Source: a virus (Duplodnaviria; Caudoviricetes). From it: a stretch of 37,580 nt of DNA. Within the stretch, counting starts at the first letter, position 1. The number at the start of each line of letters is the position of its first letter. Positions 16,830 to 37,580 of the stretch are shown here, piece after piece. A model generated the notes under the pieces. It was given only the letters and a program-made list of their open reading frames with translations. It ran no database searches and was not told where the DNA came from. A program made the position numbers and the translations under genes. The stretch is taken from IMG/VR virus record IMGVR_UViG_3300021560_000038, positions 1 through 37,580 of that record. The stretch is one strand, 5' to 3'.

Positions 16830-19745
16830 CTAACAACCTGTTGTCCAGCCGCAGTTTCTACAGACTTTGCATATTCCGCTTATCCTTACGTTAGGGGAGC
16901 CGCACTCGCCACAAGTCTCGCCGGAGAATAGTGTCTCGGGGCGGAGGGTCGGGCCGGGCGATCCGATCGGGAATATCTGGTTATTGGCTAAGTCCCTCCG
17001 TTGGAGATAGTGAATGCCGAGGTCGCGGAAGATATAATCGAAAATGCTGGCGCAGAGTTTGATGCCGTCGTGGCCGAGAACAAGGCCTGCCGGCTCGAAC
17101 CGGGTATTCTGAAACGTTCGCAAGTAAGTATCGAGGGGAACGCCATACTGGAGTCCGATGGAGACGGCCATGGCGAACCCGTCGCCCAAGGCTCGCAAAG
17201 TTGAGCCGGTTCGTGACAGACTTACGAAAATTTCGCCCAGGGTGCCGTCTTCATATTCCCCCGTCCGTAGGTAGAGGTTTTGCCCGTCGATCTTAACCTT
17301 TTGGGTATAGCCGGTTCGGAAGTCGGGAAGTTTGCGGCGGTGAGAGGGAGCGGGACTTAGAGGCGGTAGGTGATTGGCGGGCTGGAGGGGCCGCGCTGGC
17401 GCCCGGAGGGGCGCTCTGGCAGCAGAAATGCCGCCCGCGAGCGGCTGCGTAAGCTTCGACTTATCCCGATAGATAGCTATGGCTTTCACCCCTGACGTGT
17501 AGGCCAGTTTATAGATCCTGGATACGTCTTCGACGGTGGAGTCCGCCGGCATGTTGGCGGTTTTGGAGACGGCGCCGGAAAGAAACGGTTGAACCGCCGC
17601 AACCATCAGGACGTGCGCCTCGGGTCGGAGGGCCGGACCGGATGGCGGAACGGCACAAAGAAATACGTCGCGCTCGGCTTGGGAAAGGCTGGAGAGATTA
17701 GAGACTTCGCCCTGCTTAGAAATGTGTTCTAGGGCAAGGTTTATTCCGTTCTCGTCGAGAGTTTGCAGGCTCCCTAGGGCGGTTTTTAGGACTTGGGGAT
17801 TTTCGAGCGTCAGCTCGCCGCCGCCGGCAAGGGATTTGCCGACCACAAGGGCGAACCAGGGCTCGATGCCAGAACTGGCGTCCATCAACAAACTGATGGT
17901 TCCGGTTGGGGCAATCAGACTTACTTGGGCGTTTCTGAAGCCGGGGGAATGTACGTTACGTCCCCAGAGCTTCTCCGCCGCAGGGAGAATTTCCCTCGTC
18001 AATAGGTCTTTCTTTAGCTTATGATTCGCCTCGCGGTGGAGGGCCATGACGTCGCGCATTGAAGTGGCGTTCGCTTCCCAGCGCGGGAACGGGCTGAAGT
18101 CCTTCGCCAAGTCGGTCGAGGTCGCGTAGGCCCCAGCGGTCATGAGCGATGTTATTGCCGCGATTAGGTTTCGCCCCTTATCGGAGTCATAGGATATTCC
18201 GAGCTTGAGGAGGATGTCGCCGACGCCGCAATAACCTAGACCAAGAGTTCTATAGTTGAAGTTTCCGCGCGCGATCTTCTCGTCGGGACTGCCGGCCATT
18301 TGAGACGAGATGTCGAGGACCGCGGTCCAGAGCCGCGTGGCATATTCAAACTCTTCGACCTTGAAGGTCTGTTTTTCGAAGTTGAAGAATTTGTTTAGGT
18401 TTAAGCTGGCGAGGTTGCAGGCGGTGTCGTCGAGGAACATATATTCTGAACAGGGGTTCGAGGCGACGATTGGGCCGTCTTCTTTACACGTATGCCAGGT
18501 GTTGATCGTGTCGTGGAATTGGAGGCCGGGGTCGGCGCACGCCCACGCGGCCCGACAGATTTTTGTCCAGAGATATGTTGATGAGATTTTCTTGTTTAGG
18601 GTTTCGCCGACGCGGTTTATCAGATCGATTTCGAGATCGTTTTCTAGGGAGTCCATGAAGGAGTTGCTGATGCGGACGGAGTTGTTGGCGTTTTGGGCCG
18701 AGATGGTGCGGATAGCTTCGCCCTCCCAGGCGATTGATAGTTCCGGCATTGGAAAGTTCTCGTGCTTGCGGTCGAATATGGCGTCGGGGATTAGGTTCGC
18801 CAGTTCGACATCGGTTGTCGGGGTCGAGGAGATGATCCTTGACCCGACCGACATTGCCGCGGCTTTGTATTCTTCGCCAACTTTCCAGTCGATGAAGCTC
18901 TCGATGTCGGGGTGGTCGACGTCGACGATGACCATCTTGGCGGCGCGACGGGTAGTGCCGCCGGAATGGATGGCGCCCGCGCTGCGGTCGAAGATTTCGA
19001 GCCAGGACATCAGACCGGAGGATTTTCCGCCGCCCGAGAGGGGTTCGCCCTTGCCGCGTAGGACGGAGAAGTTGCTGCCGGCGCCGCTGCCGAACTTGAA
19101 AATTCGGGCTTCACGCGAGAGTAAGTCGTAAATTCCGCCCTCTTCGACGAGATTGTCGTTCAGCGAGTTGATGAAACAAGCGTGAACTTGAGGGAACTCG
19201 TAAGAATTCCCTGCCTGGATAGGGGTTCCGCCGGTCGGGGCGGTAGTCCACAACCCGGTGTTGTCGCCCGTGATGCCGTAAGCCCACCACAATCCGGTGT
19301 TGAACCACTGCGGCGAGTTGGGCGCGGCGATTTGGTTCGCCAACATGAAATAGATTTCGTTGTAGAAGTTCCGGGCGTCCTCCTCCCGATCGAAATAGCC
19401 GGCGATGAAGCCGGTGTAGGTCCAGTGTCCCGCTAGGCGGTGGAAGACGGAGTGGGCCGAGGTTTCGGGGCCGTAGGCGGTCTTCGGGACGCGCGATGGC
19501 TCGCTCCGGTAGAGCCAATTGGGCAGGCGGGCACCGTCGACGATTGGCTGGGTGATGTTGGGGACGCCAGCTTTGCGCAGGTATTTCTGCGCAAAGATGT
19601 TCGCTGCGTTGTCCGACCAATGGCTCGGCACCTCGATGTCGGACATGCTGAAGTCGGCACCGGAGATTTTCGCCTCGATGATTTTCCAGTCGATTTGGGA
19701 CTTGATCGGCGCGTTGGGATCGGAGAATTTTGTCTTAACCTGCAT
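16830..19745 (-). CDS. nrdJ: Class II (adenosylcobalamin-dependent) ribonucleotide reductase
   Basis: Motifs 'APNSPQWFNTG', 'PQVHACFI', 'GGTTRRAAKM', catalytic 'SNPCSEY', 'CNLASLNL' and 'IAPTGTIS'. C-terminal TSCPD-like domain and CxxC..CxxC. No beta-subunit gene nearby. Likely start MQVKTK at 19745. Confidence 0.93.
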   Translation of the reverse strand: MQVKTKFSDPNAPIKSQIDWKIIEAKISGADFSMSDIEVPSHWSDNAANIFAQKYLRKAGVPNITQPIVDGARLPNWLYRSEPSRVPKTAYGPETSAHSVFHRLAGHWTYTGFIAGYFDREEDARNFYNEIYFMLANQIAAPNSPQWFNTGLWWAYGITGDNTGLWTTAPTGGTPIQAGNSYEFPQVHACFINSLNDNLVEEGGIYDLLSREARIFKFGSGAGSNFSVLRGKGEPLSGGGKSSGLMSWLEIFDRSAGAIHSGGTTRRAAKMVIVDVDHPDIESFIDWKVGEEYKAAAMSVGSRIISSTPTTDVELANLIPDAIFDRKHENFPMPELSIAWEGEAIRTISAQNANNSVRISNSFMDSLENDLEIDLINRVGETLNKKISSTYLWTKICRAAWACADPGLQFHDTINTWHTCKEDGPIVASNPCSEYMFLDDTACNLASLNLNKFFNFEKQTFKVEEFEYATRLWTAVLDISSQMAGSPDEKIARGNFNYRTLGLGYCGVGDILLKLGISYDSDKGRNLIAAITSLMTAGAYATSTDLAKDFSPFPRWEANATSMRDVMALHREANHKLKKDLLTREILPAAEKLWGRNVHSPGFRNAQVSLIAPTGTISLLMDASSGIEPWFALVVGKSLAGGGELTLENPQVLKTALGSLQTLDENGINLALEHISKQGEVSNLSSLSQAERDVFLCAVPPSGPALRPEAHVLMVAAVQPFLSGAVSKTANMPADSTVEDVSRIYKLAYTSGVKAIAIYRDKSKLTQPLAGGISAARAPLRAPARPLQPANHLPPLSPAPSHRRKLPDFRTGYTQKVKIDGQNLYLRTGEYEDGTLGEIFVSLSRTGSTLRALGDGFAMAVSIGLQYGVPLDTYLRTFQNTRFEPAGLVLGHDGIKLCASIFDYIFRDLGIHYLQRRDLANNQIFPIGSPGPTLRPETLFSGETCGECGSPNVRISGICKVCRNCGWTTGC

Positions 19746-19759
19746 CGGAGAGATCCCCT

Positions 19760-20935
19760 TTAGAACATTGGAAGTGGCACCCAGTCGTCGCCAAGCGGAA
19801 GTTGGCGTATTCTGCCCCCGACCTCCATCGCCTTGATTAGGTGTGGGATGCGGTCGGCGGGGCAACGGTCCTCGAACAATTGCCAAAGTTGTTGGTTGGT
19901 AAACTGCCGCTTGTCGTTGTACTTCACCCAGATCATGTGATGAATGTCGCGCATGATTTGCACGTCGGATTTCTGACCTATCGCACGGAAGATGTCGGGC
20001 ATGGTGACTTCGGCCTCCAACATCCAGCCTCGTGCGCGCTCGAAGTCGGCATTGGTGACGATCATGGAATGGCCGGCTGAGGCGGCCGAGACCATGGCGA
20101 GCTTCATTACGTGCGTGTCGCGGCGCGAAGCGTAATTAGATAACCTTGCGTAGGTCGGAACGGGCGCCATGGCCTCGACATTATACCAGCGGGTTAGGTT
20201 GTCTTGGGCGTCAGGCTCCCAGATAACTTCGCCGTGGGATTCTTTCATGATTGATTTGAGGTCTCGTTCGAGAAACCCGACATCGACTTCACTCCGTTTT
20301 TTGAAGATGTTTCGGGTCAGTTGGGGCGCGATGCCGTAGATGAATATGAACCTTGAGGTGAAGCCCTGGCCCCAAGCGACTTCGGGAATTATGTCGCCGA
20401 TGGCGTCGGGTGTGGCGGCGGCGAGCATGTTGATCGTCGGCCCGATCAGTTCGATCGACTTGGCGACGCGCCGGGGCGCGGTGTAAGTGTCGGGGTTGTC
20501 GTAGATTGTCGTCATGTCGGAAATGAATTCTTTGTCGTATTTGGAGATAAAGACGCCAAGCTCCATACATAGGACGCAGATGGCGGAGTAGGTTTCGAAG
20601 CCCATCCCATTCAAATTGACTTTATTCGACTTCTCGATGCAGTCGAGAAAGGTCGCCTTGTTGGGATTGTCGGGACCGATGTAGACGCCGTCGGGCGGCG
20701 TGGCGATGGTCGAGAGGAATTTCTTTGCCGTCGAGACCATGATGGTTTTGCCCGAGGCGGGCAGCCCGGCGAGGATAATATACAGGTTGGGAAACAGTGG
20801 ATCTACGTCGGTCTCAGTCCACACCCTCCGTTCGAGCGTGGACGCGATTATAGATATGGCTGTCCACAGCCGGAACGACCGCGGCGAGCGGACCCCTTCA
20901 GTCGTTTCTAAAAAGCCTTCTATCCAATCGCTCAC
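19760..20935 (-). CDS. DUF3987/YfjI-like P-loop ATPase (putative replicative helicase)
   Basis: Walker A in 'PNLYIILAGLPASGKT', plus 'WGQGFTSRFIFIY' and 'HVMKLAM'. Follows the DNA polymerase. GTG start at 20935 is assumed. Confidence 0.7.
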   Translation of the reverse strand: MSDWIEGFLETTEGVRSPRSFRLWTAISIIASTLERRVWTETDVDPLFPNLYIILAGLPASGKTIMVSTAKKFLSTIATPPDGVYIGPDNPNKATFLDCIEKSNKVNLNGMGFETYSAICVLCMELGVFISKYDKEFISDMTTIYDNPDTYTAPRRVAKSIELIGPTINMLAAATPDAIGDIIPEVAWGQGFTSRFIFIYGIAPQLTRNIFKKRSEVDVGFLERDLKSIMKESHGEVIWEPDAQDNLTRWYNVEAMAPVPTYARLSNYASRRDTHVMKLAMVSAASAGHSMIVTNADFERARGWMLEAEVTMPDIFRAIGQKSDVQIMRDIHHMIWVKYNDKRQFTNQQLWQLFEDRCPADRIPHLIKAMEVGGRIRQLPLGDDWVPLPMF

Positions 20936-21000: not shown

Positions 21001-22512
21001 CTAGTGGATTGTGATGCCGACAAGTCCCTTGGGGTTCCAATCCTCGCGAGTTCCGTCTTCGAGGAGGCGATAACGGTGGGCGAAATTATGGCCGCCCACG
21101 ACTTCGCCTGGAATAGTCATAGATCGGGCGGAACTGTGTTGCGTGACCTGGACGCAATCGACGGCCGACGCCAGCCAGTCGAGTTCCTCGCGCGGAGTGG
21201 TTTCGGGCATTTGGAAGTAGACGGCGTCGTGCAGTTGGCTGAGGAGCGAAACCGGGCCGGCGCCCATCTTTTTCCACAGTCGGTAAAGGCCGAGGTTTAG
21301 GCAGTCGCCGGTTGCGCTCTGAAACAAATAGGCAATGCCGGCCTTTAATGTATCCAGGTCTTCGGCCCGGTCGAAGAAGTCGCGCCGCCGTCCGAACGAG
21401 TTGACGAGGAACCGTTCTCGCTGGAGTTGCTGGGCGACCCATTCGTGCATTCGTCGGATGCAGGGGAAGGCCGAAAAATATCGAACTTGGAATTCTTCCA
21501 CCAGGTTGAGCGGAATACGCGTCTGGCGGGATATTTCTTTCGGCGTGCCGTAGTAGTTAGTGGCGTGCCCCAAACGCTTCGACGCATCTCGGTAAGTAAA
21601 GAACCGATAGAAACGTCGCTCTGCAATACGCCGATCTTTTTTGAGATCGCCAGTCCAATCCCAGTCGGGATAAAGGAGACGTGTAACAGAAGTGTGCAAA
21701 TCGCCTGACTCACAAGCGTCAAGATAACTCCAATCCCCAAACATAATGCCGCAAAACCAACCAACGTCACGTGCTTCAGACTGGGCCTTGTCAATTCCGT
21801 AGAGTTTGTGTCCGGGGTCCGGGATGAAGACACGGCGAAGCTCCTCTGTGACGTTTTGGAAGTTGTTGCCGGTTTGGCGCCAGGCTTGGCGCTCCTCGTC
21901 GAAGATCATAAAGGGCGACTTGGAACTCGACCAGCGGCCGGTGGTTGTGCCGCCGATATTGTACGAACAGCGCCACCGCCAGTCGGAGTCTATGTTCGTC
22001 TCTAGGACTTGGAGGGATTTGGTTACGTCGCGGGAGAGAAGGACGGAATTGATGATGGGGGCGGCGTAGATTGATGATTGTTCGAGCTTTTCGAGGGTTT
22101 CGCGGTTCATCGGGCGCTTGGTTTCGCCGCCAACAACTTTCTCTATTGGTGGGAGTTTCATCCGATCGTAGAATAGGGTCTGGAGTTGCTTGGGCGAGTT
22201 GGGGAATTTGGCGTCCCAAGTCCCGCCCGTGGCAGAAATCAACGACGAAAGGATGTGGTCGATACGGGATTTTTTGTTCTGAAGCATGATGACGGCGTTC
22301 TCGCGCTCGTCGATATCGACGCGGAAGCCCCTCAGCATCATTTCCAGCGCCGGGCCTTGCATGGCCCGCTCGAAATCATAGATTAGTGTGTCGTTCTCTC
22401 TGAGGTTTTGGCGGGCAACATCGACCTCATAGGTCAAACAGTTATCATACCCGTTGTAGATGGCTTGATTGGCGTCGGCTATTTCAAGCTTGTGAGCGGC
22501 GATGGTTGGCAT
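21001..22512 (-). CDS. Family A DNA polymerase, polymerase subunit of a split gene
   Basis: 'TTTGRWSSS', 'NFQN', motif A 'IDKAQSEAR', motif B 'RDASKRLGHATNYYG', motif C 'QLHDAVYF'. ATG at 22512 with AAGGGG RBS. Confidence 0.9.
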   Translation of the reverse strand: MPTIAAHKLEIADANQAIYNGYDNCLTYEVDVARQNLRENDTLIYDFERAMQGPALEMMLRGFRVDIDERENAVIMLQNKKSRIDHILSSLISATGGTWDAKFPNSPKQLQTLFYDRMKLPPIEKVVGGETKRPMNRETLEKLEQSSIYAAPIINSVLLSRDVTKSLQVLETNIDSDWRWRCSYNIGGTTTGRWSSSKSPFMIFDEERQAWRQTGNNFQNVTEELRRVFIPDPGHKLYGIDKAQSEARDVGWFCGIMFGDWSYLDACESGDLHTSVTRLLYPDWDWTGDLKKDRRIAERRFYRFFTYRDASKRLGHATNYYGTPKEISRQTRIPLNLVEEFQVRYFSAFPCIRRMHEWVAQQLQRERFLVNSFGRRRDFFDRAEDLDTLKAGIAYLFQSATGDCLNLGLYRLWKKMGAGPVSLLSQLHDAVYFQMPETTPREELDWLASAVDCVQVTQHSSARSMTIPGEVVGGHNFAHRYRLLEDGTREDWNPKGLVGITIH

Positions 22513-22541
22513 TAGGCGAATTCCCCTTTTATTCGTCGAAA

Positions 22542-23879
22542 TTATTCGTCGCGCTTGAGGTTTTCTGACCGGGTCATTTGCTTCCAGGCTATGTCGTTCG
22601 AATATAGGGAGCCGAGATAGCCGAGGGACTTGGGAAGTTCGGGGTAGCGCGAATGGTGCCACAGCATGGTATCGTGTCGGGCGTTCCGAACTTGAATTCC
22701 CATCTTCATCAAGTGGCTGATGTCGTAAAGCCCGTTTTGGAAGATTTTTTCCGACGGGCCTTCTTGGATTTCCCGAATGAGTTTCCAAGCCAAGGTTTCG
22801 AGTTCCGCCGTCGGCCAGAAATTGATTCCCCCGTCGGCTATTCCGAGCGAGCGAGCGATCTTGCCGACGTCAATTATCCTCCCATCCTTCGTATGCGCGT
22901 CGCGGAACGGGACGACAAGGGAGGAGAAGGAGTCGGGACTGAAACCAACAATAGAAATGGTGCCGCGAATGGTTTCGATGTCGCTGGCGAGTCGGCGGAA
23001 GCGATTGGCTCGTATCCAGGTTCGGATTTCGTCGAGACCGCTGGCGGACGGGTGGGGAACCGTGATGAGGCGCTCGGGGCGACGAGTTTCGCGAAAGGTC
23101 CGCTCGCGAGCGGCTTTCTGATAGTCGGCGATCGTGGTGGTGCGTAGTTTCATGTTGCGGAGGATGGCCGCCGGGTGGAAGACCGGCAGGACTTTGAAGT
23201 CGAGGGAGGTTAGGGCCTGATTGGTGCGGGAGATTGTGCCGCGCAGGACGGATATTTTGGTCTGACCGAGGAGCGCCCAGCATGCCGCGTTGCCCATGGC
23301 GATGACGAGGCTAGGGTTTAGCTCGTCCAGTTCGCGCCAGAGGCGGCGGATGTGGGTGCGGAAGTAGATCTCCTTGACGTGGGTGCCGCGCGTGTTTTGC
23401 GATGCTTTCCACGGCGGCATCTCGGTCTGGCGCTCAGTGGAGAAAAAATGGCCCAGATCGTTTGATCTGACGTCGCGAGAGTTGCACTCGTTGCAGGTCA
23501 TCTTGCCGAAGAGGGAAATGTTGCGCGAGCCGCAGTTGTTGCAGATTTCTGGCGGGTGCTCATTGAAGACGTTGGTGACGTAGATGTTGTGGCGGTCACG
23601 GAGGGTCTTCCAGTGGTGGATGAGGCTGAGTTCGGTCGGCCAGCAATATTCGCCGCAACGGGCGCAATGGCCGTTGGTAAAGTCGGTCTCGTACTTACAC
23701 TTGCGGCAGAGGAGTTGCATGTAGGGGCACAGGCCACTCGATCCGAGTTGGAGGGTGAGTTCGCGGCCGGAGGCGCCGACGAGTGGGTGCTGGTAGTTGG
23801 CTTCGGATCGGCCCCACGCCTCGCCGCACAAAACGACGGAAGGGAGATCGGGACTGAGGTCGGAATGGGTTTCTGTCAT
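22542..23879 (-). CDS. Uracil-DNA-glycosylase-like (family 4/SPO1 pol N-terminal type) domain fused to a DnaQ-like 3'-5' exonuclease
   Basis: UDG-like motifs 'LCGEAWGRSE...PLVGASG', 'IAMGNAA' and 'FHPAAILR'. Exonuclease motifs: Exo I 'ASDIET', Exo II 'FQNGLYDISHL', then 'HDTML' and 'SLGYLGSLY'. ATGA-coupled to the upstream gene. Confidence 0.8.
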   Translation of the reverse strand: MTETHSDLSPDLPSVVLCGEAWGRSEANYQHPLVGASGRELTLQLGSSGLCPYMQLLCRKCKYETDFTNGHCARCGEYCWPTELSLIHHWKTLRDRHNIYVTNVFNEHPPEICNNCGSRNISLFGKMTCNECNSRDVRSNDLGHFFSTERQTEMPPWKASQNTRGTHVKEIYFRTHIRRLWRELDELNPSLVIAMGNAACWALLGQTKISVLRGTISRTNQALTSLDFKVLPVFHPAAILRNMKLRTTTIADYQKAARERTFRETRRPERLITVPHPSASGLDEIRTWIRANRFRRLASDIETIRGTISIVGFSPDSFSSLVVPFRDAHTKDGRIIDVGKIARSLGIADGGINFWPTAELETLAWKLIREIQEGPSEKIFQNGLYDISHLMKMGIQVRNARHDTMLWHHSRYPELPKSLGYLGSLYSNDIAWKQMTRSENLKRDE

Positions 23880-25267
23880 ATTATGATCTTTCTGATTGCC
23901 CTGGCTTGGTTGATTGCGATGTTGGCGCGCGCAACGTAAGTCGGGTCGATGTCGAGGCCAAGAATGCGGCGGGCACCGAGTTCTTCGGCGATCCGTAGAA
24001 CGGCGCCGCTTCCGCAAGTTGGGTCGAATACGTCGGTGACTTGATCGACCAGCATCGAGAGGAAATGGCGCAGCATTGAGTCGGATTTTTGCGACGGATG
24101 GATCGGAGACGATGGGAGCGGCGCCGGCGTGCAGTTGGCGAGAGATTTTAATAGGGGTCGGCGGCCGCGCGAGCAGAGGAATGCGGTTTCGTAGACTCGC
24201 CGCGGATATTGGTTGTCCCGTCCGGGAATTATGCCGGCATTGTCGGACTTGTACCAGATGAGTGGGTGATGATGGACCCAGAGGCCGCCGGCTTCCAGTT
24301 CGTCCTTGGTTTTTTCGTAAAAGTCCATACTGAACCAGAAAACAACATGGGCGGAGTAGGAGAGGAATTTGTCGAGATTGTTCGAGAACGCGGTTAGGAG
24401 GTTCCAATAGCCGCTGAACTCGTAATCGGAGTCGGAACTGGTCGTGATGCTGTTGCCGTAGTCGCGGTATTCGACGTTGTAGGGGAAATCGACGTGGACG
24501 AGGTTGAACTTGGGGCCGGAGTAAGTTTCGAGCCAGGAGATGAAGTCGGATTGGATGACGGCGGGAGGAAGGAGAACTGGCGTGGGGACCGGATCGGCGA
24601 GGACCGGAACCGCGGGACTTAGAAGTGGGGAAGCCGGAACGATCGGGTCGGAAGTTTCCGGGATTGAGATTGGGATTGGAGTTGGAACCGCCTCGGTCGG
24701 TTCCGTCTGGAAGAGGTTCCTTCCTACGTCGGTAATTTCAGAAATAATTTGGGCGGTCTTGCGCTCAGCGTCGAGCTGAAGAATTGAATAGGCTTGGTCG
24801 ATGCTGCCAGCGTCGCGCAGGAGGGGGGAGTTCAAGTTCCGCCAGACCATCAAACACTTCCTGACCCAGCGGCCGGAAGTCGAGACTTCGTGGGCGGTCT
24901 GGTCGGGCGACCAGTCGAGGTGCTGGTTTTTGTAGATGGTGTGGATTTCGCCGACGGCGGAGATATGGTCGCGCCAGAAGAGATTTTCCCGTTTGATGTT
25001 CTCTTCGAGCTCCGCGACTTTGGCCTCGATCGGCGAGAGGTCGTCGATGAAGCGGAAGTGGGTGTTCTCGACGAGCGGGTCGATGTTTAGGGCGCGAAGG
25101 GCGGAAAGTCGCCTGCCGCCGACAACGAGATGGATTTCGTCGTCCTGGCGGCGCAGAACAATGGGATGGAGCAGGCGTTTTTTAACCGAGGATAAGAAAT
25201 GCTCGTCGATATCCATAGTCTGCCGCTGACGATTCCTGACTAGAATCGAACTGATTGGTAGTTCCAT
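23876..25267 (-). CDS. ParB-like N-terminal domain fused to an N6-A/N4-C DNA methyltransferase
   Basis: ParB/Srx motif 'LLHPIVL...LVVGGRRL.A...ELEENIKRENL', then a Pro-rich linker, then MTase motif IV 'VDFPY', 'HPSQK' and motif I 'FDPTCGSG'. Confidence 0.8.
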   Translation of the reverse strand: MELPISSILVRNRQRQTMDIDEHFLSSVKKRLLHPIVLRRQDDEIHLVVGGRRLSALRALNIDPLVENTHFRFIDDLSPIEAKVAELEENIKRENLFWRDHISAVGEIHTIYKNQHLDWSPDQTAHEVSTSGRWVRKCLMVWRNLNSPLLRDAGSIDQAYSILQLDAERKTAQIISEITDVGRNLFQTEPTEAVPTPIPISIPETSDPIVPASPLLSPAVPVLADPVPTPVLLPPAVIQSDFISWLETYSGPKFNLVHVDFPYNVEYRDYGNSITTSSDSDYEFSGYWNLLTAFSNNLDKFLSYSAHVVFWFSMDFYEKTKDELEAGGLWVHHHPLIWYKSDNAGIIPGRDNQYPRRVYETAFLCSRGRRPLLKSLANCTPAPLPSSPIHPSQKSDSMLRHFLSMLVDQVTDVFDPTCGSGAVLRIAEELGARRILGLDIDPTYVARANIAINQARAIRKIII

Positions 25268-25310
25268 CGGTTTTCGAGGTCTCAAGAAGGGAAAAGAGGG
25301 GAAGAGAGTG

Positions 25311-28975: not shown

Positions 28976-29011
28976 CGGAATTCTCTCCCGTCTGGGGATG
29001 TAGGGTCTAAC

Positions 29012-29278
29012 CTAGGCGGTTCGGCGGTCGGGGAGCGTCAGCATGGGCGAAGATGAGTTGTCTTCGAAGCTGTGCCCGCGAAGTTCGATGGCGCGCCAGT
29101 AGTCGTGTAGGTTGAGGAGTTCCTGACGGACGCGGGCAATGCGGGCGGCCTCGGCGGCGTTCGGGCGCATTTGCTTGAGGATTTGGTCGAGATGATCGAG
29201 GCGCCGCGTGAGGTCGGATAGGAACTCGTCACGGAGTTCGTGAACGGAGCGGGCGTGAGAAACGTAGTGGCCGGGCAT
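29012..29278 (-). CDS. Hypothetical helical protein
   Basis: 88 aa with AGGAG RBS. Confidence 0.6.
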   Translation of the reverse strand: MPGHYVSHARSVHELRDEFLSDLTRRLDHLDQILKQMRPNAAEAARIARVRQELLNLHDYWRAIELRGHSFEDNSSSPMLTLPDRRTA

Positions 29279-29298
29279 GGGAGGGTCTCCTTGGGTTT

Positions 29299-29907
29299 TT
29301 ATTCAACGACTGCGATGAAGCGCAGGATGTTGTCAGGGCCGCGCTCAAGTCGGAAGGGTGAAGTCTCCTCGATGGCGCGAATGCTTTCGAGGACGATCTT
29401 GAGGTGCGAGGCGGCCGAGATTGGCGGAAAGACCGCTGGAGGTTTTGGCTCGGGGAGGGACTTGGGCTTAGGTTCGGGGTTCTCGCCTCGTGTCTTGTCC
29501 TGAGTCTCGCCCTGCGCCCTTCTGTCGTCGTTCTCGACGATGGCGATGTAGCGAAGGTCGGTAAAGCCGCCGGGGGCGATGCTGACTGGGTTATTGAAGC
29601 TGTCGGGCCAGAGACTGGTGTCGAAACGGCGGATGGAGAAGACTAGCCAGCCGCGATTGGTGCCGGTGGTTTGGACTCGGGTCTGCCAGAGATCATCCTT
29701 TCGCGACTCGCGAAAGGAGACTGTGGTCGAGGTTAATTCGGTTATGGTGAAGCGGAGGTGGGAGACTGAGTCGGGATCGGTGAACTTGAAGCGAATGGTT
29801 CGGTTGTGGGAACTGTAGCTGAAGGCGATGATGCGGGGGCGAGGCGGCGACGCTGGCGGAACCGGGATTGAGTCGGCGCCTTTGAGGTCGAGAGTTGGAT
29901 TGGTCAT
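29299..29907 (-). CDS. Hypothetical protein
   Basis: 202 aa with AAGGA RBS, co-oriented in the early-gene cluster. Confidence 0.6.
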   Translation of the reverse strand: MTNPTLDLKGADSIPVPPASPPRPRIIAFSYSSHNRTIRFKFTDPDSVSHLRFTITELTSTTVSFRESRKDDLWQTRVQTTGTNRGWLVFSIRRFDTSLWPDSFNNPVSIAPGGFTDLRYIAIVENDDRRAQGETQDKTRGENPEPKPKSLPEPKPPAVFPPISAASHLKIVLESIRAIEETSPFRLERGPDNILRFIAVVE

Positions 29908-29911
29908 TGGT

Positions 29912-30223
29912 TTAGTCCTTCTTTGGGGTTTTCACCCATTGGCGCTCGTAGCCGAGGGCGTGGGCCACCCAGGTCAGGGTGAAGTTCTGAGGGCGGCGGG
30001 TCTTGCCGTTCAACCAGTTGTTTATCGTTGACGGACTTATGGTGATGCTTTTGTTCGAGACGTCGAGGATGCGTTGGGTTATCTCGTCGACGTGGAGGCC
30101 GGATTTCTCGATGATGTCGCAGAGCCATTCCATGTCGGGATCGCGATCGGTGAAGCGGTAGCCGCGGTCACGGCGGAGATGGGCGAGGTTGTTGGCTTTG
30201 GCGACAGTCTTGGTTTGTAGCAT
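29912..30223 (-). CDS. XRE/Cro-like helix-turn-helix DNA-binding protein
   Basis: HTH pattern 'ISPSTINNWLNGKTRRPQNFTLTWVAHALG'. GGAG RBS. Confidence 0.7.
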   Translation of the reverse strand: MLQTKTVAKANNLAHLRRDRGYRFTDRDPDMEWLCDIIEKSGLHVDEITQRILDVSNKSITISPSTINNWLNGKTRRPQNFTLTWVAHALGYERQWVKTPKKD

Positions 30224-30266
30224 TGAGGGTACTCCATTGGATTTTTCCGCTGGATTTGGCTGAGCC

Positions 30267-30467
30267 TTATCTTGTGGTGATTTTGTCGATGGCGTCGCGT
30301 TCGGCCGCGCGCATGCGAACGACGTACGAGTGGAGGATTTCGCGGATGAGTCCGTTGAGGCCGAGCGAGGCGCCGGACGCGGCCAGTTCGCGGATCACTT
30401 CTAGGTCATCGGCCCGGAGCCGGACGCAGATGCGTTCGAGAGTTATGGCGTCGGATGTTTCAGCCAT
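30267..30467 (-). CDS. Ribbon-helix-helix (CopG/Arc-like) protein
   Basis: 'ERICVRLRADDLEVIRELA...GLNGLIREILHSYV' fits a beta-helix-helix pattern. Confidence 0.6.
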   Translation of the reverse strand: MAETSDAITLERICVRLRADDLEVIRELAASGASLGLNGLIREILHSYVVRMRAAERDAIDKITTR

Positions 30468-30747
30468 CGGACGGCTCCATCAGTTCCGCCGGTGCCTTGT
30501 CCAACTCTTTCGTGTTGATGATCCAGAGCCGATTGTCGGGATCGGTAGGGTGGAAGTCGATCTTGAGGTTGTCGAAGTCGTGATTTTCGCGCTTGAAGCG
30601 GTAGAGGACTTGCTTCGCCCGCGATGAGGGGGCGATCATGTTAAGGTCGGGGGCAGTGCAGTGGATTTGGATGCCGTAGCGCGACAGGGCGGCGGCGGTT
30701 AGAATCCGTCGGGCGTTTTCGGCGAGTAGGGAGAAGTTGTCCGTCAT
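30460..30747 (-). CDS. Hypothetical protein
   Basis: 95 aa, overlap-coupled to both neighbours. Confidence 0.6.
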   Translation of the reverse strand: MTDNFSLLAENARRILTAAALSRYGIQIHCTAPDLNMIAPSSRAKQVLYRFKRENHDFDNLKIDFHPTDPDNRLWIINTKELDKAPAELMEPSDG

Positions 30748-31073
30748 GGGGGAAGATCCTCGTTGAGGTCTGTTGCGGGAATTTCCGGGGGAATTTCTTC
30801 GGGAATTTCGATTTCGATGACGCGCCCAACGTCGATCTTGACCCCGATTGCGCGGAGGTATTCCGACCGAGCGTCGGTCTTGGCCTCGACGCGCTGACGG
30901 GCGCGGTCGATGATTGACGGGTCGATCGCCAACAGGTGGGTGATGTGGATGTCGAGTGCGTAATCTTTCGGCAGGGGGAGGTTTTTCTCTTCGAGACGTG
31001 TTTCGATGATTTCCCTGGCGAGGGAACGAGCTTCGCGGTCGACTAGTGTGTCGAATGTCACGCGCTTAGGCAT
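30744..31073 (-). CDS. Hypothetical protein with C-terminal VIEIEIP motif
   Basis: 109 aa, coupled to neighbours. Confidence 0.65.
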   Translation of the reverse strand: MPKRVTFDTLVDREARSLAREIIETRLEEKNLPLPKDYALDIHITHLLAIDPSIIDRARQRVEAKTDARSEYLRAIGVKIDVGRVIEIEIPEEIPPEIPATDLNEDLPP

Positions 31074-31485
31074 AAGGTTCGCCTTTCGAGGGAGGAGGGG
31101 GAGCGTCGGGAGGATCGTCTAGGGGAATTTCTATTTCGATGGCTTGGGCTTTGGCAGGTCTCGTTGGCTTGGATTGTTGGGGTTGGTGGAGCTTTTTGAT
31201 GTCGTGGGCGAGGTCGCGCACTGAAGGTTCGCCGTAGAAGGCGGCCTCGGCGCGCCGGCTATGGGCCGAGAGTTCGAACTGGTAGGCGCTACTCCAGGCT
31301 TGCAGTTCGGCCACGGTCGGCACCTCGTCGAGAATTTGGCGCAGGTTGAATTGGCGATCGAAGACGGCGAGTCGGCCAGAGCGAAGAGGGATGAGGACGA
31401 TCGCCTTGGTCGTATATTTGATTGAGAGGGCTTCTTGTGAGTCGGGATTGATGGCGGGGTCGAGGAAGGGGTCATCGAGGTTCAT
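31066..31485 (-). CDS. Hypothetical protein with C-terminal AIEIEIP motif
   Basis: 139 aa, coupled to neighbours. Confidence 0.65.
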   Translation of the reverse strand: MNLDDPFLDPAINPDSQEALSIKYTTKAIVLIPLRSGRLAVFDRQFNLRQILDEVPTVAELQAWSSAYQFELSAHSRRAEAAFYGEPSVRDLAHDIKKLHQPQQSKPTRPAKAQAIEIEIPLDDPPDAPPPPSKGEPYA

Positions 31486-31714
31486 CGGGAGGCTTTCCGT
31501 CGGTGAGAGGTCGAGGTCGGAAGCTGCTTCGATTATGAAAGCTCTTACATCTGAAGCAGTAGAGATACCTGACGTCGCCGGTGTTGTGGCTGACGGTTTG
31601 GCAAACGAGGCAAGTTATCGACTCGCCGTCGGCGGAAAGTTCGTAAGTGGGGATTAGTTCTGAGTTGGTCATCTTGGGGTTGGTTGAGTTGGTTGGGTCG
31701 GTTGGATGAGTCAT
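31472..31714 (-). CDS. Small zinc-finger-like protein
   Basis: 'ITCLVC...SHN..D...YCFRCKSFH'. Start is either 31714 (near-leaderless) or 31672. Confidence 0.55.
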   Translation of the reverse strand: MTHPTDPTNSTNPKMTNSELIPTYELSADGESITCLVCQTVSHNTGDVRYLYCFRCKSFHNRSSFRPRPLTDGKPPDEPR

Positions 31715-31723
31715 TAGGGTGGT

Positions 31724-31752
31724 ATTGTAGCATGGGGGGCGGGCGAGGGCAA
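31724..31752 (-). promoter_or_regulatory. Sigma70-type promoter with extended -10
   Basis: Minus strand reads TTGCCC-N17-TACAAT, with TG one base upstream of the -10 box. Lies in an intergenic gap and faces the regulatory/replication genes. Confidence 0.65.
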
Positions 31753-31835
31753 GCGGAAAAGGGAAGGCATACATGGAACCCGGTTCCAGAGGCATACCTC
31801 CCCTCCCCCATCTCGACCTTAGCTATCGACCTCCC

Positions 31836-32141
31836 CTACCGACCCTCGCCTTCGCCTTCCTCTTCGGGTTCTTCGGGATTGTATTCGGGTTCGGTAGGTT
31901 CGGGGTGATGGTCCTCGTCGTCATTCGCCATAACGAAGACGTTGTCGATCTCGACGTTGTCGTCTTCGACGGTCCAGTTGATTGAGTCGGGATCGAAGGT
32001 GGTGATTTTGCCGGGTTCGCCGGCGATGAGATGTGACATGTCCCGCATGGCGAGTTCCTCGGCGTGCGCGTCGGACTCGGCCTCGATGAGGATTTTTGTC
32101 GTGTGGGACTGGTAGCGGGTCAATTCGACTTCGTAGTTCAT
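31836..32141 (-). CDS. Hypothetical acidic protein
   Basis: 101 aa with an acidic tail, ATGA-coupled to the upstream gene. Confidence 0.65.
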   Translation of the reverse strand: MNYEVELTRYQSHTTKILIEAESDAHAEELAMRDMSHLIAGEPGKITTFDPDSINWTVEDDNVEIDNVFVMANDDEDHHPEPTEPEYNPEEPEEEGEGEGR

Positions 32142-32443
32142 GGGAGCGCTTCCTTGGGCTTGATGTAGATTTCTTCGGCGATGCTGGAGACGTGGCGGAA
32201 AATGCCGCGCGCCCGTGGGTAGAGGCCGTTGTAGTCCGCGTCAGGGTAGTTCTCGCCGAGGGAGGAGATGACGGCCTCTTTGTAGGAGGAAAAGACCGAG
32301 CCGCCAGCCCGCAAGATTTCCGGCACTTGCCGGCCGTTTATCGAGCGGACTTCGGTCGCCCAGCGGAAGAAATGTTTTTGGGAGGTTGTGAAGCCGCTGT
32401 GGCGGACGAGGGTGTAGCAGATAGAGTCGGATGAAAGGTTCAT
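32138..32443 (-). CDS. Hypothetical protein
   Basis: 101 aa with GGAG RBS. Confidence 0.6.
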   Translation of the reverse strand: MNLSSDSICYTLVRHSGFTTSQKHFFRWATEVRSINGRQVPEILRAGGSVFSSYKEAVISSLGENYPDADYNGLYPRARGIFRHVSSIAEEIYIKPKEALP

Positions 32444-32444
32444 T

Positions 32445-33020
32445 CTAGGCTCCGCTGACGATTTCCAGGTTGGGCTTTGCGTTTTCGGCTTTGAGTTCGT
32501 CTTGACGGGCTTTGGCCTTGTCGCGCGCCCCGTCGATATCGTTCTTGAGTCTTTCGATGTGCTTGCCGTAGTTGTCGGCGCTGAGGCGCCCGTAGGCGCG
32601 ATGGATTGGGATGTTGACGGGTTTCAATTCAGCCTCGATTTCTTTTAGGCGAGAGAATAGGGACTTTTGTTCGGCAAGGCGCGACCTGATCCACTGGAAT
32701 GCGGGATAGAGATTGCCGCCGACGGGCAAAGTCGCTGTGCTGTCGCCGTATTCGCCGCGGGCCTTGCCGTTCTGTCGGTTGATGCCGGTTAGGGTGAAGT
32801 CGCGGCCGGTTTCGTCGATGAGCCTTTCGGTTAGGGTGATGGGATTGAGTCGGATGCGCTCGGCAATGCGCTTGTCGATTTCTTCGCGCGCCGCTTTTGC
32901 CGACTCGAAGATGGTGTGGGACTCGGAGTCGTTGAACTCTGGCCCGATGACGGTGAATTGCCAGTTATCGTTGATGACGACTTGGTGATTGTGATAGTCT
33001 CTGGGTTCGTCGATACTCAT
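32445..33020 (-). CDS. Hypothetical protein
   Basis: True start is probably MSIDEP at 33020 (GGAG RBS). The longer ORF call runs into the satellite array. Confidence 0.65.
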   Translation of the reverse strand: MSIDEPRDYHNHQVVINDNWQFTVIGPEFNDSESHTIFESAKAAREEIDKRIAERIRLNPITLTERLIDETGRDFTLTGINRQNGKARGEYGDSTATLPVGGNLYPAFQWIRSRLAEQKSLFSRLKEIEAELKPVNIPIHRAYGRLSADNYGKHIERLKNDIDGARDKAKARQDELKAENAKPNLEIVSGA

Positions 33021-33059
33021 TTCTGAACTCCGTGGGGTTAGGTTAGGTAGGTGGGTGAA

Positions 33060-33177
33060 TGAGTCGCTCGTCGCTATCGGTCCTCTCACGTACTTCGGCT
33101 CGCTCATGTCACGCGGTACTCTTTCCGTCCTCGGCTCGCTCCAGCAGCTCGGTACTCTCACGCTTTTCGGCTCAGCT
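33060..33177 (-). repeat. Satellite TIGR-like array, 3 units of 36 nt
   Basis: Plus strand reads tgagtcgctc-N8-cggtcctctc-N8-cggctcgctc-N8-cggtactctt-N8-cggctcgctc-N8-cggtactctc-N8-cggctcagct. Confidence 0.85.
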
Positions 33178-33186
33178 TCGGCCTTG

Positions 33187-33417
33187 CTAGACGATCGCCT
33201 TCGCGTTAGGGACTTTCGCCGTCTTGTTCGCCAAGTAGTCGCTGTACTTGGCGCTGAGTTCCTCGTCGGTTAGGGATCGCGCATCGACGTGGATGAATTC
33301 GAGGAAGTCTTGGGCGTCTTCGAAGCTGGCGAAGACGGGACCGAAGGCCCACATGGTGGTTGAGCAGTAGAGGACCGCGCTGTCGCCGTCCAGGTCTATG
33401 AGAATTCTTACGCTCAT
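33187..33417 (-). CDS. Small hypothetical protein between the two arrays
   Basis: 76 aa starting MSVRILIDLDGDSAVLYC, with AGGAG RBS. Confidence 0.7.
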   Translation of the reverse strand: MSVRILIDLDGDSAVLYCSTTMWAFGPVFASFEDAQDFLEFIHVDARSLTDEELSAKYSDYLANKTAKVPNAKAIV

Positions 33418-33479
33418 GGTCTTGGTTCTCCTTCTGGTGCAGAGGATTTTGTCGAGGGTTTTGTCTTGCGTTGCACCCA

Positions 33480-33521
33480 ATAGCCGACGAAATGTTTCTG
33501 GTTGGTTGTTTCGTCGGCTAT
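33480..33521 (-). other. 13-bp perfect hairpin at the 3' end of the main array
   Basis: ATAGCCGACGAAA-N16-TTTCGTCGGCTAT. Confidence 0.7.
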
Positions 33522-33539
33522 AAGCTGCTTTCGCCAGGT

Positions 33540-34878
33540 CGGCGCTCGATCGTATCGGCACTCTCTTCGCCAGCGGCTCACTCACAACTGCCGGTACTCT
33601 CGTCACTCACGGCTGCGCTCTCTATGTACGGTGCTCTCTGAGGATTCGGCTCACTCCTGTCTTGCGGCACTCTCGTCTATCACGGTTCGCTCAGGCGTTA
33701 CGGTACTCTCCCATCTGACGGCTGGTTCGGCTGGTTCACTCTCCATTCACGGTACTCTCGGTTATCGCGGGTCGCTCTGTCGCAACGGTGCTCTCCTTGT
33801 CCGCGGCTCGCTCAAGACCTTCGGTCCTCTCCGTCTTGTCGGCTCGCTCATTCCCAACGGTGCTCTCTCTATCATCGGCTACGCGCGCTCGTCGTTCACG
33901 GTCCTCTCTGGCTGACCGGCTGCGCTCGTCGCTTATCGGTACTCTCCACTCTTCCGGCTGGTGGGCGATGATGGGCGTTCTCAGACTTCGGTACTCTCGC
34001 TTGTCTCGACTTAATTCGCTCCTCAATCACGGTTCTCTCTGTCCCGCCGGCTCGCTCGGCATAGTCGGTACTCTCATCGTCGACGGCTGGAGGCGCTCAG
34101 GACCTACGGTGCTCTCATTTCCTCCGGCTGGAAGGTTCGCCACTCGTCGTTCGTCACTCTCCAGATGCGGTGCTCTCGTCGTCTTCGGTTCGCTCTCGCC
34201 CGGAAGGGGACGCTCTCGTTGTACGGTACTCTCGGTACAACCGGCTGACGCTCGCCGCATTTGGTACTCTCGCCGATTTCGACTCACTCCTTGAACACGG
34301 TACTCTCTTCATGCACGGTTGAAACGCTCAACTGTCACGGTACTCTCATGGGACGCGGCTCGCTCATCATGCTAGGTACTCTCGTTGATCTCGGCTCACT
34401 CTGCAAGCTCGGTACTCTCAATGACCTCGGTTCACTCATTCTTTACGGTACTCTCGTCACTCACGGTTCACTCTGGTTGGCCGGTACTCTCTGCGGACGC
34501 GGTTCGCTCATTATACGCGGTTCTCTCACCGATGGCGGCTGACGCTCATTATACTCGGTACTCTCGTCGATCGTGGCTCGCTCAGTAGTTCCGGTGCTCT
34601 CGCTCATCTCGACTCGCTCATTCCTTACGGCACTCTCGCATCTTGCGGCTCGCTCTGCTCTCCCGGTACTCTCCATGAGCCGGCTCGCTCTCTTCTGACG
34701 GTACTCTCGTCGCTTGTGGCTGTCGCTCCTTCGCTCTGATACCACGGTACTCTTCCATGCCCCGGCTCACTCATATCTTGCGGTACTCTCGCCACTCCCG
34801 GTTTTGGCGCTCAAGCTCTCCGGTACTCTCTCGACACTCGGCTCGCTCATCATGTACGGTGCTCTCGTCCGTTGCGGC
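33540..34878 (-). ncRNA. TIGR (tandem interspaced guide RNA)-like dual-repeat array, ~34 units, predicted ~36-nt guide RNAs
   Basis: Alternating minus-strand repeats GAGAGTACCG (fixed length) and GAGCGAGCCG (length-variable), each followed by an 8-nt variable spacer, giving a 36-nt period. Begins immediately after the stop codon of the Nop-like gene. Confidence 0.88.
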
Positions 34879-35721
34879 TTAGGGGCCGGGAATGAAGTGG
34901 CCGTGGCCGAGGATGGCGATCGGGTAGGGTAATGGCGGCTCGGTTCCGGTCGCCCGGCGCCACCACTCGTCGTGAAGGTGGCTGAGGAAGAGCTTGACGG
35001 CGTAGCGGCGCGCTCGGAGGTCGAGGTGGCCGGGACTGAGGATGCCTTTTTCGTGATAAGGTTTGCGTTCCTTGTTGGGTCGGTCTTTGTTGATGGGTTG
35101 CGCGAGTTTCTTGTCGGCAATGTGTTTGAATAGGCCGGCTTCGTTCCGGCTGACCTCTAATGCCTTGCGCTCGCGGTAGATTTTGCCATAATAGCATTGG
35201 TCTTCGTTAGAGAATTTGACGAATGAGTCGCCGGTCTTCCAGCAGAGGGTCTTGAGGCTGGCGTTCCACGGGCGCTTCGTCTTTTTAATCCAGGGTTTTT
35301 GACCGTCGGCGGCGAGTCCCGCAAAGGCCCAGATGTGGCCGACGGTGGGTGCCTTGTGAATATCTATATTGGCGAGTAAGCCGGCGGTGATGACGGGGCC
35401 GATGCCGTAAATGCCGCGCATCCAATCGCCCATGGGGTGGTGAGTCGTGTAGGCGTCAATAGCAGCGCGGACTTGTTTCTCTAACGTGCTGGTCTGGGTC
35501 GCCAGCCAGGAGATCAGCGAATGGGGTTCGTTGGCCTTGAGGAGGTCGCGCTCCTGACCTTTGGCGCGCTTGCGGTCCTCTTGGGTGATGTAGTAGTAAT
35601 CGACGAGGAAGCGCGCCTCAGCGTCGGTTAGCGTGATGGCCGCATCGCGGAGGTCGCGAGTTAGGCGCACGACTGAGGCGAGGACTTCGGGATCGCGGAA
35701 CTGGAGGTCATCGTCGGGCAT
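34879..35721 (-). CDS. tasA: TasA-like Nop-domain RNA-guided DNA-binding protein (IS110 C-terminal/Nop-related, no nuclease domain)
   Basis: 280 aa from MPDDD with AGGAG RBS. A coiled-coil is followed by 'MRGIYGIGPVITAGLLANID...GHIWAFAGL...WNASLKTLCW...YYGKIY...HLDLRARRYAVKLFLSHL', which resembles the IS110 Transposase_20/Nop region. No N-terminal DEDD RuvC and no HNH. Abuts the dual-repeat array. Confidence 0.8.
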   Translation of the reverse strand: MPDDDLQFRDPEVLASVVRLTRDLRDAAITLTDAEARFLVDYYYITQEDRKRAKGQERDLLKANEPHSLISWLATQTSTLEKQVRAAIDAYTTHHPMGDWMRGIYGIGPVITAGLLANIDIHKAPTVGHIWAFAGLAADGQKPWIKKTKRPWNASLKTLCWKTGDSFVKFSNEDQCYYGKIYRERKALEVSRNEAGLFKHIADKKLAQPINKDRPNKERKPYHEKGILSPGHLDLRARRYAVKLFLSHLHDEWWRRATGTEPPLPYPIAILGHGHFIPGP

Positions 35722-35723
35722 TG

Positions 35724-35930
35724 TTATTCTCCTTGTGGTTCGTTGAATGTTTCGGGTTGGGGTTCGAGGTCGGCGTCCCACCAGGAGAGGAGTTCGGCGA
35801 GGTCGCCGTCGCGGTCGATGTCTTTGGCCGTGTCGATTAGGATGATTTTCTTCTCGGTCCAAGGGACTGGGTCGGCGATTAGTTCTGCTATGGCGTCGAT
35901 GACGCGGGTGTAGATGTTGGTTGACGGCAT
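35724..35930 (-). CDS. Small acidic hypothetical protein directly upstream of the tasA-like gene
   Basis: 68 aa, coupled to both neighbours. Confidence 0.6.
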   Translation of the reverse strand: MPSTNIYTRVIDAIAELIADPVPWTEKKIILIDTAKDIDRDGDLAELLSWWDADLEPQPETFNEPQGE

Positions 35931-36232
35931 TAGATGTCTCCGATTTCAACTTCGATTACGGGGGTGGCTTTTCGCGACGCTCGCGCCTTGGCTGGTTGGG
36001 GTGCCTTGCCTGGAGTCTCGCCTGGCTGTGGTGCCTTGCTCTCGCCCAGCGGTCGGGTGATGTTTTGGAAGCTCTGGCTTAAGACCTTGATTTGGTGAAG
36101 GTAGGCGCTGACTTGGAATTCCGCCCGGTTGCGCTGATCGTAGAGGGACTCGACGAGGGTGAGGATGTTCTCGGTCTCGCCACGAGATATGTAGGATTGG
36201 ATGAGGTCGCGTGTTTCGGTTGGTAGGGTCAT
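35930..36232 (-). CDS. Hypothetical protein ending in ...VIEVEIGDI
   Basis: Start MTLPTE at 36232 (AAGGA RBS, ATGA overlap). Confidence 0.65.
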   Translation of the reverse strand: MTLPTETRDLIQSYISRGETENILTLVESLYDQRNRAEFQVSAYLHQIKVLSQSFQNITRPLGESKAPQPGETPGKAPQPAKARASRKATPVIEVEIGDI

Positions 36233-36519
36233 TTCGAGTCCTTTTTGTGGTCGATGTAGAGATCGCCGGAGAGGAGGCCGACGGTGAGTCGCATTCTTTC
36301 CTCTTCGGGGCGGAATGGGTCTTTCGATGCGTTGTAGATTACGTAGCAGTCTTGTTGGGAGAGTTGGGGCGTGTGGCGATATTCGCGCATTGCCCCGGAG
36401 ATTAGGCAGATGTTGTCGCGATGACGGCGGTATTCGCTGTCGATGTGCAGGGCGACTGTGAGCGCGACGCCGAGTGTGGCGGCCATAACGGTTGGGATGG
36501 CGAGGTGTCGGATTTTCAT
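36229..36519 (-). CDS. Hypothetical membrane-anchored protein
   Basis: N-terminal hydrophobic segment 'LAIPTVMAATLGVALTVAL'. GGAG RBS. Confidence 0.6.
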   Translation of the reverse strand: MKIRHLAIPTVMAATLGVALTVALHIDSEYRRHRDNICLISGAMREYRHTPQLSQQDCYVIYNASKDPFRPEEERMRLTVGLLSGDLYIDHKKDSK

Positions 36520-36530
36520 TGAAAGTTCTC

Positions 36531-36806
36531 CTATTCGACGACATGCCAGAGAAATGACTTCCAGCGGTCGCGGCAGGGGATGATCTCGCGGCGGAACAGA
36601 TCAACACGGTCGGTTATTAATGTGACTGTGCGGATGCGGTGGTGGCCGGTTTCATCAAACAATAAATTGTCGCCGTCGCCGTATTTTGCCGTGATGGCGA
36701 TGGCATTGGTGTCGGATGCGGGGCGGCACTGATCGTAGCGCAGCATGTCGAGAGGGAACTCGCCGGTGCCGCGAACGGTGAAAGTTACACTTTTTTTAAT
36801 CGCCAT
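36531..36806 (-). CDS. Hypothetical phage protein
   Basis: Start MAIKKSVTFTVRGTGEFPLDMLRYDQC, overlapping the upstream ORF. Confidence 0.6.
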   Translation of the reverse strand: MAIKKSVTFTVRGTGEFPLDMLRYDQCRPASDTNAIAITAKYGDGDNLLFDETGHHRIRTVTLITDRVDLFRREIIPCRDRWKSFLWHVVE

Positions 36807-37107
36807 TGTGAGCCTTCCGTAGGCGGGCGAGTTCATCCTGATACTTACAGCGGTGATTGCCCCATTCATCGCCGTAGCCACTGTGGCATTGGTCGGCGGC
36901 AAGAGCGAAATTCTCTTGCTGCAACCGGGCGTTCTCGGCCTGGAGGGCGGTTGTGGCAAAGGCTACAATCTTCGCGCGGTCTGCACATAGTTGGTAATGA
37001 GATTGGGTTGGTAATATACCCTGCGACATACAAGCACACTTTCCGTATACACTTGCGCAAGCTTCCATCGTGAGACGGGCGATATCCTCGGTTGATAGGT
37101 CGGTCAT
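36796..37107 (-). CDS. Hypothetical Cys-containing protein
   Basis: Start MTDLSTE at 37107. Coiled-coil segment plus Cys residues. Confidence 0.5.
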   Translation of the reverse strand: MTDLSTEDIARLTMEACASVYGKCACMSQGILPTQSHYQLCADRAKIVAFATTALQAENARLQQENFALAADQCHSGYGDEWGNHRCKYQDELARLRKAHNGD

Positions 37108-37147
37108 AGTCCTAGGTCTTCCAATGAGGGGCGGATGAGATGGAACC

Positions 37148-37474
37148 TCAGGTTTCGATTTCGAGTTCTCTACGGGCGACGAGCGCGGCCTGAGTGCGTT
37201 CGAGGCCGTCAGGATCATACTCGTCAAGCAGGAACCGAATGAGGGTTTTGTAGTAGAGGGGACTTGGGTTCTGAGTGAAGGTGAAGCCGGTAGAGAACCG
37301 CCGGTTCTCTCTGACGGAGGCGATGGCTTCCAGCGCGACGGCACCGACGATGCCGAGGGCGAAGATGTAGCGGGAGTCGACGGGCCTGGTGTCGCCGATC
37401 GGGTAGGTATCGTATAGGGTTTGCCGGATTTCTTGGAAGAAGGTTTCGACGTCGGAATTGGTTGTTATCTTCAT
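37148..37474 (-). CDS. Hypothetical protein
   Basis: 108 aa with AAGGA RBS. Confidence 0.6.
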   Translation of the reverse strand: MKITTNSDVETFFQEIRQTLYDTYPIGDTRPVDSRYIFALGIVGAVALEAIASVRENRRFSTGFTFTQNPSPLYYKTLIRFLLDEYDPDGLERTQAALVARRELEIET

Positions 37475-37580
37475 GGGGAGTTCCTTCTGTCTCGTGCTTT
37501 GAGTTCGTATTTGCCGACGGGCGGATCGAATACCACGAAGTCGAGGCTTTCGTAGGAGTCGGGCGATTTTGGACGCTTGA

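Follow-up and report, generated by a model that had tools for sequence, protein, structure and literature searches.

A dual-repeat TIGR-TasA locus with a long guide array in a tailed phage from soil

Described TIGR-Tas systems and the position of the locus

In the dual-repeat FpTasA systems (PMC12045711), a solo Nop-domain protein stands beside an array of alternating edge and loop repeats, which has a unit of 36 nt and is followed by a hairpin. The locus described here, part of a 37,580-nt stretch of viral DNA that was analysed whole (the window), shares all of these features and differs in having 37 units where 5–15 are usual, spacers of 8 nt where those of Fp have 9, and 14 junctions that contain linkers. 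The 10-nt repeats and 8-nt spacers are also those of SpTIGR-TasH from Salicola phage CGphi29 (PDB 9W03/9W04/21KL), whose edge repeat differs at 2 of 10 letters and whose protein is the best structural match and possesses an aligned Y/H processing pair. SpTasH, however, carries an N-terminal HNH nuclease and cuts DNA, is only about 25% identical over the Nop part, and is associated with another loop repeat. MbTasA and PlTasA (bioRxiv 10.64898/2026.09.09.750476, 10.64898/2026.08.11.744272) exemplify nuclease-free, RNA-guided DNA binding, which is predicted here, but they use stem-loop guides and are without the Y/H loop, whereas this locus combines dual repeats with Y/H. Both repression and DNA binding have been published for MbTasA under these identifiers; the published TasA repression concerns stem-loop systems and not dual-repeat TasA. 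Finally, IS110 bridge recombinases (IS621, ISCro4) share the Nop-type RNA-binding fold, but the present protein has no RuvC/DEDD domain and a guide array replaces the single bridge RNA. Other TIGR-Tas sources drawn on are PMC13421893 and bioRxiv 2026.07.30.739390.

An original prediction, made from the letters of the window, had proposed a TIGR-TasA system. Its assignment to the dual-repeat class is supported by the Tas fold of the protein, the array, the Y/H pair, covariation within the units and a row in Table S1 of Faure et al. The ProteinInfo sheet of that table (Faure et al. 2025, PMC12045711; cluster node13127node) contains the identical 280-aa sequence at the same coordinates. The locus was therefore already catalogued. 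Not only this protein but also its family, the class without a nuclease and the geometry with 8-nt spacers have been published; the sheet lists Tas proteins without describing this array. Clustered repeats of the same type accompany the gene in 79 of 80 viral loci with 47–61% identical TasA, the remaining locus ending 113 bases behind the gene, and 71 of the 80 have at least three full units of this repeat type. It had also been suggested that the GAG/CCG repeat set and the 10+8 geometry form a distinct subtype. This idea fails because SpTIGR, for which Faure et al. (PMC12045711) give 16 variable letters, has the same lengths, and because the repeats are common in related viral loci. The stem-loop TIGR class was likewise rejected: edge repeats and Y/H are present, and four stretches that include linkers are no more stably folded than their shuffled versions. 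Close TasA relatives occur in named bacterial genomes as well (loci L257–L294; Halomonas, Acidobacteria, Propionivibrio and Alphaproteobacteria), with at least three units of this repeat type in 15 of 38 loci, and these would permit a search for host targets with a known host.

We consider it highly probable that the locus is a dual-repeat TIGR-TasA system belonging to a tailed phage from soil. Its TasA, which has no nuclease domain, likely processes the array transcript to guides of 36 nt with two spacers each and is predicted to bind 16-bp DNA sites that match them, without cleavage. Beyond the sequence-level facts, we infer the mechanism from homologues. The gene and its array most likely form one transcript, in which a TasA dimer would bind box C (CCG) and box D, present in edge and loop repeats alike; Y266/H273 would then cut within the edge repeat and release the 36-nt guide. 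The guide would open one contiguous 16-bp site, spacers A and B pairing to its opposite strands. No PAM would be required, and the site would read as A joined to the reverse complement of B, a geometry that we infer from two published features, the 8-nt 3′ overhang and the C-5 rule. The predicted binding without cutting follows by homology, and TasA may serve as a roadblock that sterically blocks transcription, as for MbTasA. The least certain step is the choice of targets, most likely other phages or mobile elements in the same host, possibly with a bias toward gene starts.

A 2026 TIGR-Tas preprint calls natural targets and array evolution open questions, and the locus offers a test case for both. 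Its array is long, covaries internally, has naturally occurring linkers where processing is predicted and contains guides that resemble gene starts; it would suit a processing assay at once, and the mapping of targets when the host or co-occurring phages have been assembled. The parts of most value for experiment are the gene-start bias and the edge linkers only; the locus as a whole is of a published kind.

Table 1. Positions of the features of the locus in the window
Feature	Position	Strand	Remarks
tasA, solo Nop-domain protein, 280 aa	34879..35721	-	Coiled coil about 31–95, Nop core, C-terminal loop with Y266/H273; row of Table S1, Faure et al.
Main dual-repeat TIGR array, 34 units AGCCG-N8-GAGAGTACCG-N8-GAGCG	33543..34879	-	14 of 33 junctions with 1–25-nt linkers between edge halves
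13-bp hairpin closing the main array	33479..33520	-	Terminator-like or stabilising; without a U-run after it
76-aa ORF between the two array blocks, no known family	33187..33417	-	Pfam, PHROG and fetched loci checked
Second array block, 3 units	33065..33172	-	Unit-by-unit reading

Predicted fold and putative processing residues of TasA

The AlphaFold model of TasA (pLDDT 86, pTM 0.82, with low confidence at residues 269–273) has a Tas-like fold. Among 48,161 chains compared with this model, TasH was at the top (Z 18.2, rmsd 3.4, 222 aligned), followed by TasR (Z 17.9, rmsd 2.7, 192 aligned) and, more weakly, the IS110 recombinase ISCro4 (Z 12.3), the next chain reaching 9.3; with Foldseek, ranks 1–10 of the model's matches were Tas chains only. 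A sequence search of solved structures found TasR (E 1e-12) and TasH (E 2e-9), to which a 35-sequence profile added weak matches to IS621 and ISCro4 (E 3e-4). The coiled coil and the Nop domain of the Tas family are both present by sequence, profile and structure comparison, and the GIGP and WAFAGL...W.ASLK region noted earlier lies within the 280-aa ORF.

From residues 31–34 onward, the model aligns to TasH 66–305 and TasR 112–319, behind their HNH and RuvC parts, and its residue 30 aligns to ISCro4 from residue 125 onward, only about 30 residues standing ahead of the coiled coil. Because these alignments begin at residues 30–34 and skip the HNH/RuvC domains of the matched proteins, TasA is read as a solo Nop protein, and the claim that it lacks HNH and DEDD RuvC domains held up. 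No fused HNH or RuvC domain was found in TasA, nor was the N-terminal DEDD RuvC domain of IS110 bridge recombinases, and a 68-aa ORF upstream has no family match in Pfam or PHROG. The IS110 catalytic serine motif is presumably missing also, judging from the 35-sequence profile alignment and the usual position of the motif.

We give almost no credence to the idea that the gene is a decayed IS110 transposase lying beside an unrelated repeat. PHROG 4285 is labelled transposase, the Pfam Transposase_20 profile matches weakly (E 0.004, below the cut-off), and the IS110 fold is recognizable in the structure comparison. Against this reading, the RuvC/DEDD part is absent from the N-terminus, and the search found 5,127 relatives of the protein, of which the 120 best are 259–383 aa long; arrays adjoin the relatives, and the covariation described below shows selection on RNA structure. 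The conserved link of gene and array, together with the entry in the catalogue of Faure et al., refutes it.

By sequence alignment only, Y266/H273 correspond to SpTasH Y289/H296, reported to process the array. The tyrosine is kept in 79 and the histidine in all of 83 aligned proteins. In the TasAs of three other phages (G017, G015 and G018), the loop between these two residues is longer. Compared with the window, a contig of sequencing run X1 has a three-letter synonymous swap of a serine codon (35209–35211) and one further silent change (35236) in tasA, which suggests a recombined patch in a sister strain.

Array organization, predicted guide structure and edge linkers

The tasA gene reads from ATG at 35721 to TAA at 34879, and array unit 1 begins at the final base of this stop codon. 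The arrangement originally proposed, a 280-aa gene and then about 34 plus three dual-spacer units, was confirmed (Table 1). Each unit is composed of a half-edge, an 8-nt spacer, a 10-nt loop, a second 8-nt spacer and a half-edge. Information content is 0.6–2.0 bits in repeat columns (most above 1.4) versus 0.04–0.29 bits in spacer columns, and nearly all spacers are indeed different (A, 36 of 37; B, 37 of 37; 73 of 74 distinct within class). Matches to the loop repeat with up to two mismatches number 51 on the minus strand, 43 of them inside the array, and 13 on the plus strand, where they are scattered. The expectation of uniform 36-nt units was borne out for the basic unit but not throughout: 14 of 33 main-array junctions are longer, among them those behind units 18, 19 and 23, unit 6 is short by 1 nt, and the B spacer of unit 24 has 9 nt.

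The region of the closing hairpin (33470–33545) folds with −32.7 kcal/mol (z −5.65), a stability equalled by 0 of 200 shuffles. The ORF between the array blocks has no Pfam or PHROG match and no relative among the fetched loci, and a search of Rfam returned no match. A promoter scan of 29000–37580 gave a single site, at 31752, which is within chance and does not lie upstream of tasA.

Evidence that the array acts at the RNA level is provided by positions 2 and 35 of the edge, which within units read 28 G-C, 7 A-T, 1 G-T and 1 mismatch (n=37, two irregular units having been corrected by hand; Fisher p 3.5e-6). All seven units with A at position 2 carry T at position 35, while the letters across junctions show no association (p 1.0). 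The same positions pair in 828 of 828 distinct related units, and an extra edge pair of this type is described in the TasR structure. This covariation shows selection on RNA structure, and its occurrence within units fixes the guide phase, AGCCG-N8-loop-N8-GAGCG, as first proposed. The box C/box D pair is 34 C-G, 2 T-G and 1 T-A in the edge (n=37) and is present in 37 of 37 loops. In a related strain, known from short low-depth contigs, 12 listed within-unit substitutions fall in spacers (8) and at two variable loop positions (4), with none in box C/D. We prefer to assign the G that follows each spacer to the repeat, because it alternates with A as in SpTIGR and because joining A without a gap to the reverse complement of B gives sequences resembling natural DNA. 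Across 725 related guides, this join came closer to natural DNA than did shuffled pairs (z 2.0), the other A/B joins giving z 0.75, −1.8 and −1.7.

Units 12 (34468–34433) and 33 (33614–33579) have an A spacer in common and different B spacers, where about 0.05 such pairs are expected. Half-guides are reused within one array about nine times in relatives (L009, L012, L016, L033, L034, L069 and L075), in which A/B-swapped guides also occur, and in one 151-nt contig of run X2 another A spacer replaces that of unit 31, the switch lying precisely at the loop repeat. Half-guides may be reshuffled through recombination at this repeat.

The array shows 16 changes of length, and 14 of them are insertions that separate two edge halves without damaging either; a p of 8e-13 was computed for 13 of 15. 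Among distinct junctions of relatives, 636 have exactly 36 nt and 34 have 37–70 nt, 25 of the latter coming from two arrays with a constant longer period, and in 50 other arrays measured only that of phage G017 matches the number of long edges seen here. Edge linkers are therefore unusual yet not unique. In the sections and passages searched, the TIGR-Tas literature gives no account of them, and the published array finder allows a maximum of 4–5 bp between intervals, so that such linkers would split arrays. The TasA array of G017, a kin phage (L220 9038–11150), has 45 units and very variable edge repeats, with 14 of 21 measured edges long and internal hairpins in several of the long ones.

Predicted targets, phage context and proposed biological role

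In the window itself, the joined targets had no match with up to two mismatches and 14 matches at three mismatches, versus 9.7 (maximum 20) for shuffled pairs. Self-targeting in four geometries with gaps of 0–4 showed no excess over shuffled pairs, and single spacer 8-mers were seen 87 times against 85 expected. Because the window is a genome fragment, this search covers 37.6 kb only, and the missing part could hold self-targets; kin genomes have 54–93 kb. There was no match with up to one mismatch in 86 kin loci (1.14 Mb) or in 60 kin genome segments (1.14 Mb), and two-mismatch counts in these two overlapping sets (2.3 Mb) were like those of shuffled nulls. The TasA loci (1.12 Mb) yielded one match with one mismatch, about the chance level, for unit 33 at a gene start in L002. 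When 828 related guides and 100 guides from four further phages with TasA were searched in 3.4 Mb, they showed no excess either.

The scans of a virus collection took 4 of the 37 predicted targets, picked for their promoter- or start-like look, and found exact matches in unrelated phages for units 9 (1), 33 (6), 10 (3) and 6 (14). Those of units 9, 33 and 10 lie mostly within genes of lower-GC phages; those of unit 6 are often at gene starts, as the sequence of unit 6 alone predicts. For these four targets the matches were of the chance type, and no target was identified. Three viral contigs (L243, L244 and L255) have in common a hairpin with a ribosome-binding site and an ORF of 7 codons behind it, which may be a small structured leader.

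ATG is present on one strand in 22 of the 37 predicted targets (33 occurrences versus 18.8 in GC-matched phage DNA, p 0.002). A crude gene-start matrix scored the 37 targets at z 3.7 against GC-matched phage DNA, 10 of 37 targets being in the top tenth, and at 3.2 when purines were matched too; against shuffled pairs p was 0.04, and a second matrix gave z 2.6. The gene-start idea is post hoc, having been formed once the spacers had been inspected. GAC is enriched as much as ATG, ATGs that span the junction of the two spacers are not significant (p 0.10), and gene-start bias in 52 + 13 other arrays reached z 1.9 at most. A family-wide −10-box or start-codon bias is absent in 724–725 related targets and in 13 further arrays (z −1.8 to 1.9). 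If spacers share ancestry because units were duplicated, the same pattern could arise. We put forward, as a speculative extension that is probably not correct, that the guides are aimed preferentially at gene starts (start codon and ribosome-binding site, together with a TATAAT box in two cases), forming a natural multiplex silencer of the 5′ ends of rival-phage or host genes, and that the edge linkers let each guide be excised by two independent cuts. If true, such cuts would give dual-repeat arrays a freedom of which the TIGR-Tas literature sections consulted make no mention.

The resemblance to gene starts also bears on the idea that the same RNP regulates the phage's own or host genes, for takeover or timing, instead of rival elements. 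We regard this as possible and distinctly the less likely course. It is favored by the small early-type genes among which the locus sits and by published silencing of E. coli host genes with reprogrammed Tas, but there is no self match within the 37.6 kb. The distribution of the gene fits better with an accessory competition cassette than with a core regulatory part: TasA is found in 3 of 25 kin records (G001–G025, kin being defined by DNA polymerase) and is absent from the closest complete ones, and it has no conserved partner, the 8 ORFs nearest tasA being without a relative in any fetched TasA locus. The genes flanking tasA are common to the kin, and tasA behaves as a cassette in a variable region.

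It is quite improbable, in our view, that TasA is a guided architectural factor, binding and bending DNA for recombination, replication or partition rather than for repression. Roles of TasA as an integrase aid or in connection with ParB were raised by Faure et al. (PMC12045711), and the phage does have a ParB-like/methylase gene, although it lies 10 kb away. Neither an integrase nor a ParB gene adjoins tasA, and 37 different guides suit many targets and not a single att or par site.

The window is a fragment of a tailed phage, with tail genes and an endolysin on the plus strand and ribonucleotide reductase, primase, polymerase and exonuclease on the minus strand. The phage occurs in soil runs, and two other studies contain short contigs of the related strain. 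A relative of the phage polymerase was found in no genome of the bacterial collection searched. By polymerase and exonuclease, the nearest cultured phage is Caulobacter phage Kuura (34–35% identity), which is too distant to name a host. Three other genes of the minus strand were noted: a large ribonucleotide reductase of 1018 aa (16830–19886, PHROG 84); a split family A DNA polymerase (21001–24407) with a separate upstream ORF that has a uracil-DNA-glycosylase-like domain, zinc ribbons and an exonuclease-like C-terminal part; and a DNA methyltransferase fused to a ParB-like N-terminal domain (23876–25285).
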